DNA of 31,494 nucleotides from a candidate division WOR-3 bacterium (GTDB taxonomy: Bacteria; Hydrothermota; Tepidihabitantia; Tepidihabitantales; JAOUPE01): the NCBI GenBank assembly GCA_029880025.1, contig JAOUPE010000001.1, positions 1 to 31,494 on the forward strand, given 5' to 3'. Positions 3,239 to 11,407 of the stretch are shown piece after piece; position 1 is the first letter of the stretch; each line of letters opens with the position of its first letter. The position numbers and the translations under genes were made by a program. The notes under the pieces are model-generated. The model searched no databases, had not been told where the DNA came from, and worked only from the letters and a program-made list of their open reading frames with translations.

Positions 3239-3361
3239 TAGCTATTGGTTTTCTCACCGATATACAGGATTGGTATTGGAGACAGCAGGCTGAATAATAT
3301 ATTTTTTTATCCTTAACACTAATTGGGTTGAATCTTTATTTTAATGGGCGTTAAAAAAATC

Positions 3362-3390
3362 TTGACAAAAGATGAAAAATAAGTTATTAT
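3362..3390 (+). promoter_or_regulatory. Putative sigma70 promoter of the exopolysaccharide operon
   Basis: TTGACA-17 nt-TATTAT. Confidence 0.7.
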
Positions 3391-3524
3391 ATATGGGCTA
3401 TCCGAGAACTTGTTTTGATAGCACAAAAGGCAACAGGAGGCAGATGTACTACTCAACTTCGAAGAAAAGTGAATTCAGGTTCTATTAACATAATTTTTGT
3501 TTTGTTTGCGGTAAGGAGGTGTAA

Positions 3525-4898
3525 ATGTTATTCCCGAAACTTAAGACTGGATTCAACCTAATCGATGATTTATGGCAAGGGTTCTTTAAAGGTAGAACCT
3601 ATTTGTTGAGTGGACCGGTCGATTCGGGAAAGACAACTTTTGCCCTGCAGTATGCCTTAAAAGGTTTAGCCTCAAAAGAAAAAATCGTCTTTTTTAGCGA
3701 TGAGCGACCCGAAGATGTTTTGCTTCGAGCCGAAGCTTTACAACTCGGCTCAACCAAAAAGGCATGTTTTGATTTAACCGCCGGTTTCGAAAATGGCGAT
3801 TTTTTAATTTTTAATATCGGCTTGGATGATAAAACCAAAATAATTACCGACCAGCTGCTCAATCAGACAAGCCATGAGATTAGCCAAATTGTCGAAAAAG
3901 AACAACCGGTTAGATTAATCTTTGACCAGATTACATTCCTTCTGCAATACAAGGAATTCGAAACACTAAAACAAGATATTAAGGAGTTGATTTATTCGTT
4001 TGAGAAATCTAAGGTAACAAACCTGATTACGATTGGTGAACCAGCCAGTAACCAAGCCGAAAAAATTTTAGATTTCTTGAGTTCGCTTGCTACCGCAACA
4101 ATAAAATTGTCTGAGCCAGAAAACGAGAAAAGGAGATTACAACTTCATGCCCGACTCGGACATTATCCTGATTCATATTCGAGTCAGTTTGTAATTCGTC
4201 CGGGTATTGGATTAACCACGATTGAAAAAGTGGTTCCCATAACATTGGAACAGGAAGTGGTCCCGGAAATAACTCCAGAACCAACCTGGCAAGAACCCGA
4301 ACCTGCTGTTTCGCCTGAACCGAGCGTGACTGAAACACCGGTCGTTGAACCAGTCGCGCCGCAACCGGTCGAACCCATTTTTCCTGAGCCAGCACCAGAA
4401 GCCGAAGCTAAACCCTCCGAGGTTTCGGATCGAATCGAACCGATTGAATCGATACCAGAGTATCCAGTTCGGGATTTAGACCGTGATGATTTTACCGGTC
4501 TTTTCAATTTTGACGGTTTGCTTAATATAATTTCCCGGGAAGTGGAGAAAAAGACTCCTTTTTCTTTAATGATTATTTCAATCACAAAAGGGGTGGATAG
4601 CCGAGCGAAACGGTTGCTGCTTTCCCATAAACTCGCTTCGGCGGTCAAATCGGCAATCAGTAAACCGGCACCGGTTGGTAGATATTCAGATAAGATTATT
4701 GCCTATCTCCACAAAACTCCCAAGTTGGAGTCGCAAGAAATGGCAACGATTGTCGAAAACAAAACATTGAAAACACTGATCGCTGAAAACGAAAGTCTTA
4801 AAGGTATCGAAATCAGAGTCGATATTTACGCCTATCCAGAAGATATTCTCTCGATACGTGAAATTGAGACAATTGTCCAAGCCGGAGGTGAACAATGA
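3525..4898 (+). CDS. KaiC/RecA-like ATPase + Pro/Glu-rich linker + degenerate GGDEF-like domain
   Basis: KTGFNLIDD, Walker A GPVDSGKT, Walker B LIFD, FVIRPGIG. Linker PEPTWQEPEPAVSPEP. C-terminal DDFTGLFN (GGDEF N-terminal signature) and VGRYSDKII in place of GRYGGDEF. RBS AAGGAGG. Confidence 0.75.
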   Translation: MLFPKLKTGFNLIDDLWQGFFKGRTYLLSGPVDSGKTTFALQYALKGLASKEKIVFFSDERPEDVLLRAEALQLGSTKKACFDLTAGFENGDFLIFNIGLDDKTKIITDQLLNQTSHEISQIVEKEQPVRLIFDQITFLLQYKEFETLKQDIKELIYSFEKSKVTNLITIGEPASNQAEKILDFLSSLATATIKLSEPENEKRRLQLHARLGHYPDSYSSQFVIRPGIGLTTIEKVVPITLEQEVVPEITPEPTWQEPEPAVSPEPSVTETPVVEPVAPQPVEPIFPEPAPEAEAKPSEVSDRIEPIESIPEYPVRDLDRDDFTGLFNFDGLLNIISREVEKKTPFSLMIISITKGVDSRAKRLLLSHKLASAVKSAISKPAPVGRYSDKIIAYLHKTPKLESQEMATIVENKTLKTLIAENESLKGIEIRVDIYAYPEDILSIREIETIVQAGGEQ

Positions 4899-6799
4899 AG
4901 TTTTTATCGAGTTGTGCCATACTATTTTTCGCTTCAGCTTTTGCCTTTTCGGCATTAGCCGAAGACAATTATTTCATTCGGGCGCAGAAAAATTATGACC
5001 ATGGGCTTTATTCGGAAGCGGTCAACTTTTTAGAAAAGGAGTTAGACCAAAACCCAAAAAACATATCGGCTTGGAAATTGCTTGGCAAGTGTTATTTAGA
5101 GATTGACCGGCTTGATGAAGCAATCGCTGCTTATGAACAGGCAAGAAATCTTGACCCGAATAACCAAGAGATTATTAGCTTGCTTGACCAGGCAAATTGG
5201 GTAAAAAGAGAAAAGTTGGAATCGAACATTCAAAAGTATCAAAATTATCTTATCCGTCATCCGGATGACGCCGAGTATCGACTCAAATTAGCCCGCATGT
5301 ATAAAGATTGTGGCGATTACAAGGCAGCGCAAAGAGAATATGAAATTTATCTGGCGAATAACCCATATGAAGACAAAGTGAAAGAAGAATACTATTCAAT
5401 TGCTCCTGAGCAATCTCACAAAAAGTTTAGTAAGCGAGAAACAAGAACGGGTAAGGTGAAAAGTAAAAAATACCACCCCCTGCCTTCCCCCCCTAAAAAA
5501 GATTGGGAGAAAATTTTAGATAAAGCCCGTGACTTAGTCGGTCAAGAAAAATATGTTTCAGCTGAATCGTTATATGAGAACTATTTAAAACAGAAGCCGA
5601 GCGATACGGTTGTTCTAAAGGAATACGCTCAAATGCTTTCTTGGAATAAACAGTATGAAAAATCAATTGCCGTTTATCGAAAGCTTCTTGAACTAAAACC
5701 TAATGATAAAAATTCCGCCTTTGAGCTGGCACAGGTTTTAAGTTGGGCAGGAAAATACGATGAAGCAATTACTCAATATCAGACCCTTGATACCACGAAT
5801 ATCGAGGTTCTTATCGGACTGGCTCAAACCTATTATTGGAAAGGCGACTATAGAAATGCCCGGTTAACTTATCAGAAAATACTTGCCTTAGACCCGAAGA
5901 ACTTAGAAGCGAAGAAAATGGTTTCAGAACTGCAACAAAGAGAAATTCCAGCTCCTGAATTAAGAGCCAAAGTGAGCAATTTTTGGGACAGCGAAGAATT
6001 CTACTATAAAAATTTCGCGGCTGCCTTGAATATTCATTTAAGCGAAAACACCAGTCTGGAACCCGGCTTCTCGGCCAGGCAATTTGAACAACGCGATGAT
6101 GTCATAACCGGTTATTCCTATTCGATTCGCCTCATGGAGAAATTTTCCGAAACCGTTGATGGCGATATTCATTATGCTTATAATTATTATGATTGCGTTC
6201 CCAACACGCAAGCTTATGGGCTTGCCTTGAATTACTATCCTTATTTGCTAACCAACTTTAGTTTCAGTTATGACCATCACGATATCATTTATGATGTCTC
6301 GACTACCCGGTCATTGATTCAGGCGATTACAACCGACAATTTTGAAGTATCGGGCAGCCATCAATTTGAAAAGGGGTATGGGATAATCGGGAGTTATCTT
6401 TATGGCATGTATTCGGATGATAACCGATTACAAAATCCACAAGCGCGATTGTACTACCAACTGTTTAAAATCCTGCGCATCGGCTATGCTTATAATATGA
6501 TTACATATTCTTTTGCTTCGCCCTGGTACTGGTCACCCGATTTTTATCAGACCCATTCGATCTGGTTTGAACTGGCTAATGGTTCAAAATCACCGTTATC
6601 TTATTATGTGAGTGCCGAAATTGCGAAAGTGACCAATTCCTCGAAACTGGCTCGTTCCATCTTTGCCGATTTCGCTTTGAACCCGTCCCAACGATTTAGT
6701 ATCGGCTTCCAATTCTCTTATTCTGAGTTGAGCCGAACCAAAGATGCGCCTGCGTACTGGCAACAATCATTAGCCGCCTATTTGAAACTACAACTTTAA
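4895..6799 (+). CDS. Exported TPR protein with C-terminal predicted outer-membrane beta-barrel (PgaA/BcsC/PelB-like architecture)
   Basis: N-terminal signal peptide ending ALA-ED. Two TPR blocks (AWKLLGKCY...AIAAYEQARNLDP; LAQTYYWKGDY...ILALDPKN). Last ~280 aa have alternating aromatic/polar strands, ending YLKLQL. Confidence 0.75.
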   Translation: MKFLSSCAILFFASAFAFSALAEDNYFIRAQKNYDHGLYSEAVNFLEKELDQNPKNISAWKLLGKCYLEIDRLDEAIAAYEQARNLDPNNQEIISLLDQANWVKREKLESNIQKYQNYLIRHPDDAEYRLKLARMYKDCGDYKAAQREYEIYLANNPYEDKVKEEYYSIAPEQSHKKFSKRETRTGKVKSKKYHPLPSPPKKDWEKILDKARDLVGQEKYVSAESLYENYLKQKPSDTVVLKEYAQMLSWNKQYEKSIAVYRKLLELKPNDKNSAFELAQVLSWAGKYDEAITQYQTLDTTNIEVLIGLAQTYYWKGDYRNARLTYQKILALDPKNLEAKKMVSELQQREIPAPELRAKVSNFWDSEEFYYKNFAAALNIHLSENTSLEPGFSARQFEQRDDVITGYSYSIRLMEKFSETVDGDIHYAYNYYDCVPNTQAYGLALNYYPYLLTNFSFSYDHHDIIYDVSTTRSLIQAITTDNFEVSGSHQFEKGYGIIGSYLYGMYSDDNRLQNPQARLYYQLFKILRIGYAYNMITYSFASPWYWSPDFYQTHSIWFELANGSKSPLSYYVSAEIAKVTNSSKLARSIFADFALNPSQRFSIGFQFSYSELSRTKDAPAYWQQSLAAYLKLQL

Positions 6800-6804
6800 T
6801 CAAA

Positions 6805-8175
6805 ATGGCGGATAATAAAAATACTATGAAAACCGCGGCGCAAAAAGGTTCCCGGTATGGTTTATCGCTTTTCATTCTGGTAATACTTTGTCTGATTTTT
6901 GGATTTATTACCTATTATTTCAACCGCCGGTCGTTTCTGCCATTTGGCTCAACCTTAATCATTGCCCTGACCGTAGTGCTTTTAGCCTTTTTGATTCTAT
7001 TAATAATTCGTTACTTTTTTACATTGTTTTTTGCCTATCTTCATCAAACGAGTGCCGGACCAAGCGAAAAATCCGACTTTTTCCCGTTTGTCTCAATTCT
7101 CGTACCGGTTTATAATGAAGGTAAAGTGATTAAATCGGTGCTCGATTCACTTTTGAATATTGATTATCCTGATTATGAAATCATTGTGATTGATGATGGC
7201 TCAACCGATGATACCTTACAGGAAATTCAAGACTCAAAAGGCAAAAGTCAAAATTCAAAACTAAAGGTGTTTTCGAAAAAAAATGCGGGTAAAGCTTGTG
7301 CGCTTAATTATGGGTTAAAACAGGCTAAGGGTGAATTTATCGCCTGCATTGATGGTGACAGTCTAATCAATCCCGAAGCGTTGCGGCTCGGCTTGCGTCA
7401 TTTTTCTGATCCGAAAGTTGGCGCAGTAGCCGGAAATGTTAAGGCAATCAATCGGCAAAAAATGGTCTCGACCCTTCAGGCGTTAGAATATGTTGAAGGA
7501 TTGAATATGCCGCGTCGTGCCCAGGGGTTATTCGGTTTAGTAAATATTGTGCCCGGACCGATTGGGTTTTTCCGACGCTCGGCACTCGAAGCGGTGGGCG
7601 GTTATTCCAAAGATACCTTTGCCGAAGATTGCGATTTGACCCTGAAAATTTTAAGCATAGGGTGGAAAGTACGTTACGAGCCGGAAGCATTAGCTTGGAC
7701 CGAGGTTCCGGAAACCTGGATTGATTTAGTTAAACAACGCTACCGCTGGACGCGCGGTATCATTCAATCGATTCGTAAACACAAGAGCATTCTTTTTAAC
7801 CCGAGCATAAATTTTGGCGATACGCTAATCTTCTGGCAAATGATATACGAAGCAATCATCTGGCCGGCAATGAATATTTTTGCTCACCTATTCTTTATCA
7901 TCGTTGCTTTAATTTTCGGCTTCTCGCCCTTAATCGTTTTTTGGTGGCTCCAACTTTTAGCTTTAGATATGATGGCAGCGCTTTTCTGCGTTGCCTGTGA
8001 AGAAGAACAGATGAAATTGATTCCTTATGCGATACTCTATCGATTGATTTTCATTCTCATCATTGATATCATCAAAGTGTTTGCCACGATTGAAGAGTTC
8101 TTGAGTTTGGGTATGAGCTGGGATAAGTTAGAACGGAACGGAAGAGTCAACGGCATAATTAAGGAACCAGTATGA
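6805..8175 (+). CDS. Processive GT2 polysaccharide synthase, PgaC/IcaA-like
   Basis: PVYNE, IDDGSTD, GKACALN, DGD, QALEY, AEDCD, QRYRW (QxxRW); N- and C-terminal TM helices; no PilZ domain. Confidence 0.88.
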   Translation: MADNKNTMKTAAQKGSRYGLSLFILVILCLIFGFITYYFNRRSFLPFGSTLIIALTVVLLAFLILLIIRYFFTLFFAYLHQTSAGPSEKSDFFPFVSILVPVYNEGKVIKSVLDSLLNIDYPDYEIIVIDDGSTDDTLQEIQDSKGKSQNSKLKVFSKKNAGKACALNYGLKQAKGEFIACIDGDSLINPEALRLGLRHFSDPKVGAVAGNVKAINRQKMVSTLQALEYVEGLNMPRRAQGLFGLVNIVPGPIGFFRRSALEAVGGYSKDTFAEDCDLTLKILSIGWKVRYEPEALAWTEVPETWIDLVKQRYRWTRGIIQSIRKHKSILFNPSINFGDTLIFWQMIYEAIIWPAMNIFAHLFFIIVALIFGFSPLIVFWWLQLLALDMMAALFCVACEEEQMKLIPYAILYRLIFILIIDIIKVFATIEEFLSLGMSWDKLERNGRVNGIIKEPV

Positions 8176-8480
8176 ATACCGTAATCGCAGTATTATCAAC
8201 CATCATTCTTGCGGTAACAGTCCTTACGCTATTTCTGGGGATTTTTGCCTACATCGTTTATAAAGCACGTAAGCGCAGCAGCCGACGTAAACCCAAGCCA
8301 GAAAAATTTGCCGAAAAACCAAAGCCAGCTGAAATCGTAAAGGAACCAGAACCAATAGTAGAGATAAAACCAGAAGTCCCTCCCCGACCCCCAATATCGG
8401 TTGAACGACCCCAGACCAGCGGATTAATCCGTCGCTATGAACCAGAAAAGAAAAAGGAGAAACGGGTAGAATGGAGATGA
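8172..8480 (+). CDS. Small single-TM protein with basic, Pro/Glu-rich tail
   Basis: ATGA overlaps with both neighbours; one hydrophobic helix followed by KARKRSSRRK. Confidence 0.7.
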   Translation: MNTVIAVLSTIILAVTVLTLFLGIFAYIVYKARKRSSRRKPKPEKFAEKPKPAEIVKEPEPIVEIKPEVPPRPPISVERPQTSGLIRRYEPEKKKEKRVEWR

Positions 8481-10324
8481 GTTATCGTCGAATTAATCTC
8501 CTCACCCTTTTAATATTAGGTCTCGTTATCGTCTTGGTCAGTATTGCGGCTTATTATTTTACGCTTCAAATCGTCCGGGGCGAAATGCGTCTGAAAAATG
8601 TGAAATTGGCAATTCCAACCACCGCACCAGCAAAAAAATCAAGACCAATTACTGCCCGGGTTGTCCTTTTGATTTCGGATTATAGGCAAAAACGATCGGG
8701 AACAAGTAATACTGATAACTTCATTAAAGGTTGGCAAAATTTTTTCGCAAAAGAAAATATATCTTATGATACAATTCGCGACCAAGACCTTGAGCTGAAT
8801 AAAATAAAATACGATATTTTAATTCTTCCCTATAATCCATCCCTTCCCGAACTGGAAATAAATCGAATTAGCGAATTTTTAAATAATGGGGGAGGTATAA
8901 TTGCGTGTGGTGAATGCGGATTTATGGATGAAAAAGGTGAAATCAGGCAGCCAACTTTTCTGAATCGAGTGCTTGGTATCACCAAAATTAACGAAATCGA
9001 CCAATCAATAAAATCCTATGTTCCATTAACCTTAAAGACCAATTCACCATTAACGGTTGATATTGCTTTGGGAGCACAATTAGGTTTGACCACCGAGTAT
9101 GGCTGTGTAAAAGCAAGGATTATCGAAGAAAGAACGGTTCAGGACGGCTACTTCTACGACTCCGAAGTTGACAAAGGAATCGCTCTGGAAGAAATTAAGA
9201 ATAGTACTGGTTTATGCCATGGTTCTTATGGTAAGGGTAGATTTGTCTGGTTAGGTTTTAATGTCTTTTCATTTACCGGCGATGATTTCACCCAGAAGAA
9301 CTATGTAAAATTTTTGCGAAATGTTTTGCTCTGGACCGCAAGCAAACCGCTTGCCAGAATAAAGACCTGGCCCAAGGATTATCACATGGCAGTAGTAATC
9401 TCTGGTGATATTGAACATAAATTCACCAATGTAGAAAATGTGATAGATATTTTACAAGAATATCGAATAAAGGGTTCCTTTTTTATCCTCTCCGATTTAG
9501 CTGAGGTCAATGTCGATATGGTTAGAGCGATGGCAAAAAATGGCGAAATCGGGATTCATGGCGATGAACACACTGTTTTCAAAGGTCAACACTATGATTT
9601 ACAACTGGAACGGTTACAACAAGCAAAGCAAGTCTTGGAAGGAATTTCCGGACAGAAGATAATCGGGTTTCGACCACCTTATGGCAATTATGATGAGAAT
9701 ACGGTGCGTGCTTTAAATGAACTCGGAATAAATTATTTAACTTCAAGCATAACCGGTGGGACCAATATCGACCCGTATTTTATTCCTTATTTTGAAGATT
9801 TTGTTGTCATCCCCAAGACCAACAAAGATGATTACGACCTGTTTTATCGGGATTCGATTACCGATCCCGAGGCAGTGTTAAATGAACTTAAGGACGAGTT
9901 TGACGGATTATACGATTTGGGCGGTTTCTTTTCTCTCAGTTATCATACTCAGATTTTAGCACTTGATACCAACTGTGGGGTCATTTCTGACCTGATTGGC
10001 TATATCAAGCCAAAAAATGTTTGGATTGCGACCTGGCAAGAGATTACCGATTGGTGGCGAAAAAAGCGAAACCTTGAACTTACAGTCCAGGAAAAAGGGA
10101 GTAAACAGTTTATAGTTACGGTAACCAATTCTGGTAAAGATGCGGTTGAAGATTTTAATATCCAAATCTTTCCGCAGATTATTTTTCCGCTAACCCAGAT
10201 TAAATCTGATTTAAAGGAAACCTTAAAAAGGGATTTTGACCCTCAAACCGGTAGCTTTAGTATCCCAATTAAAAAACTCGAACCAAAAGCCAAGCGTCGA
10301 ATTACCATCACCCTGGGTTCTTGA
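8477..10324 (+). CDS. Membrane-anchored multi-domain polysaccharide deacetylase (CE4/NodB)
   Basis: N-terminal TM; flavodoxin-like/GATase-like middle domain (YDILILPY...GGGIIACG); CE4 motifs GDIEH, HGDEH, FRPPYG, SYHT; beta-rich Ig-like C-terminus. Start 8477 chosen from the ATGA overlap (track gives 8471). Confidence 0.8.
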   Translation: MSYRRINLLTLLILGLVIVLVSIAAYYFTLQIVRGEMRLKNVKLAIPTTAPAKKSRPITARVVLLISDYRQKRSGTSNTDNFIKGWQNFFAKENISYDTIRDQDLELNKIKYDILILPYNPSLPELEINRISEFLNNGGGIIACGECGFMDEKGEIRQPTFLNRVLGITKINEIDQSIKSYVPLTLKTNSPLTVDIALGAQLGLTTEYGCVKARIIEERTVQDGYFYDSEVDKGIALEEIKNSTGLCHGSYGKGRFVWLGFNVFSFTGDDFTQKNYVKFLRNVLLWTASKPLARIKTWPKDYHMAVVISGDIEHKFTNVENVIDILQEYRIKGSFFILSDLAEVNVDMVRAMAKNGEIGIHGDEHTVFKGQHYDLQLERLQQAKQVLEGISGQKIIGFRPPYGNYDENTVRALNELGINYLTSSITGGTNIDPYFIPYFEDFVVIPKTNKDDYDLFYRDSITDPEAVLNELKDEFDGLYDLGGFFSLSYHTQILALDTNCGVISDLIGYIKPKNVWIATWQEITDWWRKKRNLELTVQEKGSKQFIVTVTNSGKDAVEDFNIQIFPQIIFPLTQIKSDLKETLKRDFDPQTGSFSIPIKKLEPKAKRRITITLGS

Positions 10325-10333
10325 AATAAGAGC

Positions 10334-11407
10334 TCACCGATTCAAATCCTCGCAAGTTAATTTATTGAGTCGCTTCAATACTCTTAAAGCGAATAAAGTA
10401 ATCCATTTGCTTGGTCTGCCCACTGGTTCAATATTGGTTTGCATTCTTCCGGTTGGCGAATTCTCAAGAATCCAGGTTCTATCCTTTTGCCGTTTCTTTA
10501 GTAAAATGTCTAAGGCATCGTTTAATCTCTCATCATTAGTATAACCCAATTTGGTCAAAACATTCAATCCTCTTAAAATATCATAGCTGTAAAATCTCGG
10601 CAAACAAAATTTCAGCCAGGATTGTTTGATTGTCTTATAATTGTGGTGGTCAGCTTTAAACAAACGATGCATCAGTAAAAATTCAGCACCGCGGCTGATT
10701 GTATTTTTCATTTCTTCGGTCAAATTTTCTTTTGGTACTTCACTAAAAGCCTCTATTGGACAGATTGTTCCAAAAAAGCAACCATGGGTATCCTTAATAT
10801 GGGCTTTCCAATAAGGGCAAAGCCAACCACCGTCTTGATTCTGAATCTTCACGAGCCAATTCAAAGCTTTTTTGACCCTTGGGTCATTTTCGTAACCCAA
10901 ACGAATTAACGCCGCTGCCATATTGCCGGTTAAGCAGGACAGTTGTTGCTCCCTAATAAGGGATGAAGCCCATTCTTTGAATGGTGGCATTTTCTTTCCT
11001 CTCTTTAAATGCCAATCGTATCGGCGCTTTGCCGTCTTTTCGGTTTCTGACAAAAACCCGCCTTCTTCGTGTTGAAATCGAAAGATGTATTCACAAGCCT
11101 TTTTAACCCTCTGGTCGGTTTGGTCAATTCCCATCTGTGCCAGAATCATGATTGTCCAATAAGAAGACTTGTATTTCGGCAGATAAGGACTAGCTGTTTC
11201 TTCCCAATATCCTTCGGGCTTTTGTTCGGAAAATATTTTGGTTATTACCTTTGAATTGGGAATCGCCGATTTGGCTACATTCAGCTCTAAATCATCTTCT
11301 TTTTTATCCAGTAAGTCTCTTAATGTAAAATATCTAATCGTTTGATTCTCTTCTTCTAAAAGCCATGTAACAATATTCTTTTTAGATAAATTCTTGGACT
11401 GTATCAT
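10334..11407 (-). CDS. Prenyltransferase/squalene-cyclase QW-repeat (alpha/alpha toroid) protein of unknown function
   Basis: Repeated QxxxGxW-type motifs: QKPEGYW, QHEEGGF, QNQDGGW, RQKDRTW. No DxDD motif seen. Confidence 0.65.
   Translation of the reverse strand: MIQSKNLSKKNIVTWLLEEENQTIRYFTLRDLLDKKEDDLELNVAKSAIPNSKVITKIFSEQKPEGYWEETASPYLPKYKSSYWTIMILAQMGIDQTDQRVKKACEYIFRFQHEEGGFLSETEKTAKRRYDWHLKRGKKMPPFKEWASSLIREQQLSCLTGNMAAALIRLGYENDPRVKKALNWLVKIQNQDGGWLCPYWKAHIKDTHGCFFGTICPIEAFSEVPKENLTEEMKNTISRGAEFLLMHRLFKADHHNYKTIKQSWLKFCLPRFYSYDILRGLNVLTKLGYTNDERLNDALDILLKKRQKDRTWILENSPTGRMQTNIEPVGRPSKWITLFALRVLKRLNKLTCEDLNR

Follow-up and report, generated by a model that had tools for sequence, protein, structure and literature searches.

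A five-gene cassette headed by a KaiC-like protein in a candidate division WOR-3 bacterium: a probable synthase-dependent exopolysaccharide secretion system

Synthase-dependent secretion of exopolysaccharides, as by the Pga, Ica, Pel, Bcs and Alg systems, has a central place in the biology of biofilms. To our knowledge, nearly all such systems described in diderm bacteria are gated by cyclic dimeric guanosine monophosphate (c-di-GMP), and we know of only one regulator, BcsE, built from a RecA-like domain and a dead GGDEF domain. Two sets of observations on described systems are closest to the locus reported here. PgaD and IcaD are non-homologous small membrane partners required by their respective synthases, and staphylococcal synthesis of poly-N-acetylglucosamine (PNAG) is c-di-GMP-independent (PMC7112194). 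BcsE carries a dead RecA-like domain, modelled on KaiC, together with a dead GGDEF domain, and is recruited to the membrane by the small single-pass protein BcsF (PMC7439463). KaiC and Ignavibacteria do not feature in a systematic survey of synthase-dependent operons (PMC7112194). Our subject is a group of five genes, encoding proteins designated P0001 to P0005, within a stretch of 31,494 nt (the window; contig JAOUPE010000001.1 of assembly GCA_029880025.1) from an uncultured sediment bacterium of candidate division WOR-3. Literature searches found no description of this five-gene system.

In a six-frame list of open reading frames (ORFs) the genes occupy the + strand at 3525-4898 (P0001), 4895-6799 (P0002), 6805-8175 (P0003), 8172-8480 (P0004) and 8471-10324 (P0005). 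As read from the sequence, the first junction is an ATGA at 4895-4898; the stop codon TAA of P0002 (6797-6799) is followed by TCAAA, a 5-nt gap, and by the ATG at 6805; and a further ATGA occupies 8172-8175. The last junction, at 8471-8480, reads ATGGAGATGA and represents an overlap of 10 nt if P0005 starts at 8471 (the longest ORF), or an ATGA only if it starts at the second ATG (8477). An earlier, sequence-only reading of this DNA had listed three ATGA overlaps and a 5-nt gap: those at 4895 and 8172 and the gap before 6805 are confirmed, and the third depends on the start at 8477. The five genes are co-oriented and translationally coupled, and they constitute one operon. A strong Shine-Dalgarno sequence, AAGGAGG, can be read directly at 3513-3519 (+), 5 nt 5' of the P0001 ATG. 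The AT-rich intergenic spacer upstream of the operon measures 417 nt and contains the best sigma-70-like promoter candidate of the region, TTGACA-17-TATTAT (3362-3390, +), identified by consensus match alone (11/12). The GC content of the operon is that of its flanks, and proteins of the window are identical to database entries labelled candidate division WOR-3.

DNA of the operon region (window positions 3300-10400) is present nearly verbatim in at least eight sediment or soil metagenome runs from seven studies, which contain 64-97% of sampled 31-mers. It follows that this WOR-3 population occurs widely and that a chimeric assembly at the operon is unlikely.

We consider it probable that the operon equips a diderm WOR-3 bacterium for synthase-dependent secretion of an exopolysaccharide. 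In the scheme we propose, P0003 would polymerise a UDP-sugar at the inner membrane, most likely UDP-N-acetylglucosamine (UDP-GlcNAc), and would thread the chain across that membrane as PgaC and IcaA do. P0004 would serve as an accessory subunit of the synthase, its cytoplasmic tail and C-terminal W-R motif contacting either the synthase or P0001. P0005, a membrane-anchored periplasmic protein of carbohydrate esterase family 4 (CE4), would partly deacetylate the polymer, and P0002 would guide it through the periplasm and export it across the outer membrane. P0001, similar in build to BcsE, would work in the cytoplasm as a subunit for control or assembly that couples synthesis or assembly to nucleotide state and does not sense c-di-GMP. 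Gene structure, domain folds, motif states, conserved gene order and the lack of GGDEF or PilZ matches in the genome and its order are observations; the sugar, its linkage, the contacts between subunits and the stimulus acting on P0001 are what we infer.

The arrangement recurs well beyond the window. Close relatives of P0001 form ~20 clusters, all WOR-3-like, and an exhaustive search with this protein returned only six representatives at E <=1e-30 among 1.84 billion. Among the WOR-3 loci (L001-L005), every contig of sufficient length carries all five genes in this order, while the flanking DNA differs; genomes of genus g3 (family f3), from another family of the window's own order, have a shorter, more degenerate version of the cassette (L019). 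A wider family of P0001 homologues, marked by the N-terminal motif TG..(L/I)ID..WGG.YRGG.Y, heads the same cassette in three loci from other lineages (L021, L022 and L105); that of L021 comprises two tetratricopeptide repeat (TPR) genes, a glycosyltransferase family 2 (GT2) gene, a 155-aa gene and a CE4 gene. The KaiC-like gene comes first in the cassette in all related loci. Among species-representative genomes, 266 KaiC-like loci were confirmed, of which the best 80 were surveyed; these are all from Ignavibacteriota, including Melioribacter roseus and Stygiobacter electus, and all lie near the first sequence of the search alignment, itself from that phylum, so that other phyla are undersampled. 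In essentially every one of ~60 complete Ignavibacteriota loci, phmmer recovered the order KaiC-like, TPR-barrel, GT2, small protein, CE4, with E-values of ~1e-155 for the GT2 against P0003, 1e-5 to 1e-9 for the small protein and 1e-67 to 1e-86 for the CE4 protein. At E <=1e-60 the GT2 clade alone comprises >5,000 clusters, among whose labels are Ignavibacteriota, Bacteroidota, Chlorobiota, Acidobacteriota and WOR-3. Recurrence of the five-gene order in dozens of independent loci is far beyond chance, and the operon family is very common, not rare, in uncultured and some cultured bacteria of the Fibrobacterota-Chlorobiota-Bacteroidota (FCB) group.

The five products correspond to those named in the sequence-only reading (an ATPase with a degenerate GGDEF domain, a TPR-barrel protein, a GT2 bearing QRYRW, a small transmembrane protein and a CE4 deacetylase), both in their ORFs and in the domains and folds found. 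The synthase offers the clearest relationship. P0003 (456 aa; 6805-8175, +) is a membrane-integrated, processive GT2 synthase of PgaC/IcaA-like type, with the motifs DDGSTD (residue 130), DGDS (183), AEDCD (273) and QRYRW (311) and a C-terminal SWDKLERNG (438). The first four are invariant in 17 aligned sequences including PgaC, and the N- and C-terminal transmembrane helices of processive GT2 enzymes are present. Its best curated family is PgaC_IcaA (TIGR03937; 238.1 bits, E 1.6e-70), below the equivalog cut-off of 422.3; MftF (mycofactocin glycosyltransferase) and NodC follow at ~117 bits and CelA at 100, and chitin-synthase models also match. P0003 is 33% identical to Escherichia coli PgaC over 320 aa and has the same topology, its C-terminal W-x-K-L-E-R-x-G aligning with WVSPDRG of PgaC. 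This C-terminal W...R.G motif also recalls WGTRG, the gating loop of hyaluronan synthase (PMC11750622), a resemblance that we regard as a lead only. The protein belongs to a large clade of its own, 47-84% identical internally and 27-33% identical to PgaC. E. coli PgaC, the outgroup of the GT2 tree, is very remote (branch ~10 changes/site); sequences of WOR-3, genus g3 and L021 group together in a clade with support 90/99, and the deepest branches of the family have no resolved order.

Directly 3' of the synthase gene, here as in the other WOR-3 and the Ignavibacteriota loci, lies the gene for the small protein. P0004 (102 aa; 8172-8480, +) has one N-terminal transmembrane helix (aa 4-29) and a tail rich in Lys, Pro and Glu, which we place in the cytoplasm because a basic patch follows the single helix. 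The linker is disordered and variable, and the conserved C-terminus ends W-R in WOR-3, Ignavibacteriota and L021 homologues, or W-K in one WOR-3 homologue (L005). PgaD is a small protein with two transmembrane helices that binds c-di-GMP jointly with PgaC; P0004 has no similarity to it, no Pfam match and one helix, not two. Since PgaD and IcaD are themselves non-homologous, and Ica is c-di-GMP-independent (PMC7112194), it is plausible that a further small partner, related to neither, exists and that the system operates free of c-di-GMP. Complex prediction with P0003 (aa 20-456) and with P0001 and P0004 as partner, using their own alignments, scored 0.01 against a mark of 0.32, a value that is neither support nor evidence against.

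For P0002 (634 aa; 4895-6799, +) we propose the roles of scaffold in the periplasm and export pore in the outer membrane. The protein has a Sec signal peptide, TPR blocks at aa 24-170 and 204-350, and a predicted outer-membrane beta-barrel at aa 352-634 (5948-6796, +), for which 15 strands were assigned by DSSP in the AlphaFold model. Since whole-model fold searches were dominated by the large domains (TPR in P0002, KaiC in P0001), the barrel and the GGDEF-like part of P0001 were judged on Atlas searches with cut-out regions. The Atlas model of the barrel reached a template modelling score (TM) of 0.87-0.93 to TPR-plus-barrel proteins of Bacteroidota, Gemmatimonadota and Acidobacteriota and to a cyanobacterial porin cluster, and by features its nearest families are PgaA_barrel, Slam (SlipAM), YaiO, BCSC_C and PelB_C. 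The barrel is also the best-conserved part of P0002, with 60-83% identity among WOR-3 relatives. The suggestion in the sequence-only reading that the gene ending at 6799 encodes a C-terminal beta-barrel is thus upheld by the predicted strands and the fold matches. At the level of fold, and with moderate confidence, P0002 appears to share the architecture of PgaA, periplasmic TPR followed by a C-terminal barrel. By sequence, aa 350-634 have no Pfam match even at E 10; the PgaA model TIGR03939 matches the TPR part alone (43.3 bits, cut-off 366.65), PF21197 (PgaA_barrel) does not match, and hhalign aligns only the TPR.

P0005 (617 aa; 8471-10324, +, or from 8477) begins with a signal-anchor transmembrane helix (aa 9-30), followed by a region (aa ~60-295) resembling the middle domain of glycoside hydrolase family 42 (GH42M-like; E 4.7e-6), the CE4 domain (aa ~300-535; 9368-10075, +) and a beta-sandwich-like C-terminal tail. 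The CE4 domain matches PF01522 with E 3.7e-20 and 72.6 bits (cut-off 23.1) and has the Asp, His-His, Arg-x-Pro-Tyr and His motifs that, by sequence, would place the protein in the family: D313/E315 (GDIEH), H363/H367 (HGDEH), R401-P-P-Y404 and H492 (SYHTQ). Residue counts cover four WOR-3 and 58 Ignavibacteriota sequences. All seven residues are kept in 4/4 WOR-3 sequences, except that Y404 is Phe in one; in the Ignavibacteriota orthologues D313, H363, H367 and R401 are replaced in 58/58 and H492 is kept in 57/58. PgaB is a lipoprotein that joins an N-terminal CE4 domain to a C-terminal GH153 hydrolase/binding domain. Comparison with it was not significant by BLASTP or hhalign, which aligns only a stretch around RxPY; P0005 has no GH153 domain and no lipobox, its place being taken by the signal anchor. 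At L105 (12550-15841) the GH42M-like protein (778 aa) and the CE4 protein (792 aa) are encoded by separate adjacent genes, which suggests either that P0005 arose by fusion of two periplasmic parts or that the L105 arrangement arose by splitting. Distant Atlas feature neighbours of P0005 include DUF2194 proteins (~620 aa; some with DUF2334) of Actinomycetota and Bacillota, a hint that large CE4-like proteins of the periplasm or the cell exterior may make up a broader family.

Taken together, a PgaC-like synthase and an intact-looking CE4 site would point to a partly de-N-acetylated amino-sugar polymer. The same machine might instead make another product, for example a chitin- or chitosan-like beta-1,4-GlcNAc polymer, one containing N-acetylgalactosamine, or a glucan, with the CE4 protein acting as a de-O-acetylase or merely binding the chain. 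The score of P0003 well under the PgaC_IcaA cut-off, the additional matches to NodC, CelA and chitin-synthase models, and the membership of P0003 in a large clade apart from PgaC all lend something to this alternative, as does the retention of Ignavibacteriota CE4 orthologues despite their lost catalytic residues, which implies that a binding role exists in the family. We nevertheless regard it as rather unlikely, given that PgaC/IcaA outscores every other curated family twofold in bits and that the metal and catalytic residues of the CE4 domain are intact in the WOR-3 clade, as would fit an N-acetylated substrate.

E. coli PgaABCD synthesises, deacetylates and exports poly-beta-1,6-GlcNAc. 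Set beside it, the operon has a TPR-plus-barrel porin, a GT2 with several transmembrane helices, a gene for a small membrane protein directly after that of the synthase, and a periplasmic CE4 protein. It differs in gene order, which here is X-A-C-(small)-B, in the extra gene for a KaiC-like protein with a degenerate GGDEF domain, and in showing no sign of c-di-GMP control; moreover P0002 lacks a PgaA match beyond the TPR, there is no PgaB or PgaD sequence match, P0005 has an N-terminal GH42M-like domain and no GH153, and P0004 has one transmembrane helix rather than two. Staphylococcal IcaADBC and the operon have in common a synthase of the PgaC/IcaA type with a non-homologous small membrane partner after it, and a CE4 protein that lacks a hydrolase domain; the c-di-GMP independence of Ica (PMC7112194) is like the mode of operation proposed here. 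Ica is, however, a monoderm system without an outer-membrane porin, its IcaD has two transmembrane helices, it includes no ATPase-GGDEF-like protein, and IcaC is absent from our locus. As for cellulose synthesis, the partner synthase here is PgaC-like and lacks PilZ, and there is no BcsB, BcsQ or BcsR; the CelA model gives P0003 100 bits, far from its cut-off of 699, no PilZ, the C-terminal domain of BcsA, was found in the protein or the genome, and BcsB had no match. Pel (PelA, PelB, PelE, PelF, PelG and PelD, the last with GAF and degenerate GGDEF domains) is set apart by its glycosyltransferase PelF, which is GT4 where ours is GT2, and no Pel family appeared in Pfam and NCBIfam scans of the five proteins.

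The sequence-only reading had held that the set matches none of these systems gene for gene, having no PilZ, BcsB, GT4 PelF or two-helix PgaD. Pfam and NCBIfam scans likewise found none of these, P0004 has a single helix, and in HMM searches the components fall outside the characterised pga, ica, pel and bcs groups (238 against 422 bits for the GT2, 43 against 367 for the TPR protein). The wording was nonetheless a little strong, since, role for role, the operon is the Pga plan in the permuted order pgaA-pgaC-(small partner)-pgaB and has an evidently PgaC-like synthase. The proposal of a distinct system following the logic of synthase, TPR porin and deacetylase agrees with both the scores below equivalog cut-offs and the conserved cassette.

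The leading gene encodes P0001 (457 aa; 3525-4898, +), which we propose as a regulatory or assembly subunit. The protein consists of a cytoplasmic KaiC/FlaH-like single RecA-fold domain (aa 1-232; 3525-4220, +), a disordered linker rich in Pro and Glu (aa 235-317; 4227-4475, +) with a predicted local distance difference test score (pLDDT) <50 and with length and sequence varying among relatives, and a degenerate GGDEF-fold domain (aa 318-457; 4476-4895, +). Residues 7-204 match the KaiC-type ATPase family PF06745 (E 1.8e-20), Foldseek matches are to KaiC and FlaH (E ~1e-12), and the domain has a Walker A motif, GPVDSGKTT (aa 30-38), a Walker B-like RLIFD (aa 130-134) and an acidic pair, D59-E60. 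It is not a KaiC clock protein, having one RecA-like domain rather than two in tandem with autokinase sites, and scoring 51.5 bits against a cut-off of 408 for NF006799. The C-terminal domain went undetected by Pfam, PF00990 included, and was recognised, over aa 315-457, by its Atlas model (TM 0.75-0.79 to GGDEF models), by language-model features (0.97) and by a motif shared with PDB 6khu. Here SDKII replaces GG(D/E)EF and SKPA stands at the position of the RxxD I-site, with an N-terminal DDFTGLFN retained; P381 and P383 are invariant in the WOR-3 clade. With its GGDEF motif replaced and no PF00990 match, P0001 is not an active diguanylate cyclase. Among solved structures, sequence similarity to this C-terminal domain is confined to one chain (E 4.7e-4), PDB 6khu, a 131-aa protein titled 'diguanylate cyclase/phosphodiesterase-domain containing protein', on which our literature search found no paper. 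The sequence VGRYSD is common to both, standing in place of the GGDEF motif; unlike the C-terminal part of P0001, 6khu is a stand-alone domain. In the wider family this domain is hardly conserved, F346 being the sole invariant residue.

The described protein most like P0001 in design is BcsE of enterobacterial type II cellulose secretion. Both have a KaiC-like RecA domain and a degenerate GGDEF domain, and both belong to operons that encode a small single-pass protein. BcsE is tripartite, with degenerate RecA-like, REC and GGDEF domains; P0001 has the RecA-like and GGDEF folds with a disordered linker in place of REC, an intact Walker A motif where that of BcsE is degenerate, and no RxxD, the motif by which the GGDEF module of BcsE binds c-di-GMP. 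The likeness is not detectable by sequence: hhalign gave a probability of 0.1% for the P0001 family against E. coli BcsE, and P0001 has no PF10995 match.

Degenerate GGDEF domains are c-di-GMP receptors in Pel and enterobacterial cellulose secretion (PMC7439463), and the sequence-only reading had taken c-di-GMP control as its background expectation. The C-terminal fold of P0001 being that of GGDEF, it might similarly act as a receptor, like PelD, BcsE or PssE, that switches the synthase on. We regard this as highly improbable. P0001 has SKPA rather than RxxD at the I-site position, beside the invariant P381 and P383, and its C-terminal domain is barely conserved in the wider family. Neither PF00990 nor PilZ had a match in the window's genome (82% complete). 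Of 80 high-quality genomes sampled from the phylum, 13 belong to the window's order (families f2, f3 and f4; 96-100% complete), and a GGDEF domain was found in 0/13 of these and in 58/67 of the others, in one to 22 copies and often 5-20. The three genomes of genus g3 that carry a related cassette belong to the GGDEF-free set. A lack of matches in sampled genomes does not prove absence, but these data suggest that the whole order of the window has lost c-di-GMP synthesis; control of the operon by c-di-GMP is unlikely, direct sensing by P0001 very unlikely, and the background expectation probably does not apply here.

What P0001 does with nucleotides is informed by its homologues. In the WOR-3 clade K36, T37 and D134 are kept in 16/16 sequences and E60 in 15/16. 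Among Ignavibacteriota orthologues K36 is replaced by Arg in 75/79 and E60 by Met in 78/79, with T37 and D134 kept in 79/79; in homologues from other lineages K36 is Arg in 17/17, T37 is often Asp or Gly, D134 is Asp in 7/17 and E60 is lost. The P-loop is wholly absent from the form in genus g3. Retention of GxxxxGKT, D134 and E60 in 15-16/16 WOR-3-clade sequences that are just 41-64% identical overall has the look of purifying selection on a nucleotide site, and P0001 in this clade retains motifs with which it could bind and would probably hydrolyse ATP. The same retention argues against P0001 being an inert scaffold in WOR-3 too, its KaiC-like module merely oligomerising and docking other subunits and its intact Walker A motif functionally meaningless. 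For such a scaffold speak the Arg in place of the Walker A Lys and the loss of E60 throughout most relatives, the genus g3 form devoid of any P-loop, and the RecA-like domain of BcsE, which is catalytically dead but essential for assembly (PMC7439463); we judge a scaffold possible, though the less likely role for the WOR-3 protein.

Several considerations weigh against the secretion system as we propose it. The GT2 is the only component with detectable sequence homology to any Pga, Ica, Pel or Bcs protein that has been characterised, and the sugar and linkage could differ from those of PNAG because P0003 lies far from PgaC in the tree and below the equivalog cut-off. The barrel half of P0002 was modelled by AlphaFold at low confidence (low pLDDT in the second half), and deacetylase activity of P0005 is not assured, since the first CE4 motif departs from the canonical form, with GDIE in place of TFDD. 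A check for RNA runs on the GT2 gene listed none. Finally, as judged from their motifs, the ATPase and the deacetylase are both dead in most other lineages, which would mean that the core function of the system needs neither activity.

By motif content, the WOR-3 clade carries a version in which both ATPase and deacetylase look active. This version is probably the older state, because regain of lost catalytic motifs is unlikely; with the base of the GT2 tree giving no order, this is the sole argument. A bolder account, which we offer as speculative and unlikely as a whole, is that WOR-3 harbours the live form of an FCB-group system in which ATP binding or hydrolysis by the KaiC-like protein, and not c-di-GMP, gates a PNAG-type synthase to which it is tethered through the W-R tail of P0004, and that the versions in Ignavibacteriota, Gemmatimonadota and Rhodothermales are later derivatives whose ATPase and deacetylase have decayed to scaffolds. 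If true, this would add a new principle of control to synthase-dependent secretion of polysaccharides and show a possible origin of BcsE-like regulators. The WOR-3 copy is the most informative one: since the motifs of its ATPase and deacetylase are intact, and the genome and order yielded no diguanylate cyclase, it can show the role of the regulator before degeneration as well as c-di-GMP-free control. M. roseus and S. electus are cultivable hosts for genetics on the degenerate version.

Some loci depart from the basic plan. Among six Ignavibacteriota loci (L085, L097, L099, L100, L102 and L103), some have an extra short KaiC-like gene (~245 aa) just upstream, and L085 and L103 have a tandem second module of KaiC-like and TPR-barrel genes. 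A second CE4-like gene occurs downstream in some Ignavibacteriota loci, and also in L054 and L058. Many Ignavibacteriota loci show a gap of ~1.5 kb between the TPR-barrel and GT2 genes, which may hold one more gene. On a 2.2-Mb contig, L104 (10001-14075) has a KaiC-like gene (Walker A GRT) followed by its TPR partner only, with no GT2, small-protein or CE4 gene nearby; the pair of ATPase-like and TPR proteins may be the tightest unit of the system.

Downstream of the operon, 9 nt past the P0005 stop codon, lies a convergent gene on the opposite strand (10334-11407, -). It encodes a 357-aa cytoplasmic protein with weak prenyltransferase/squalene-cyclase alpha-alpha-toroid repeats and no signal peptide. 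Considered as the missing hydrolase, it was rejected, since it lacks a signal peptide and does not adjoin the cassette in L005 or L019. It probably has nothing to do with the operon. A copy 72% identical to it occupies the same position beside the cassette in L001.

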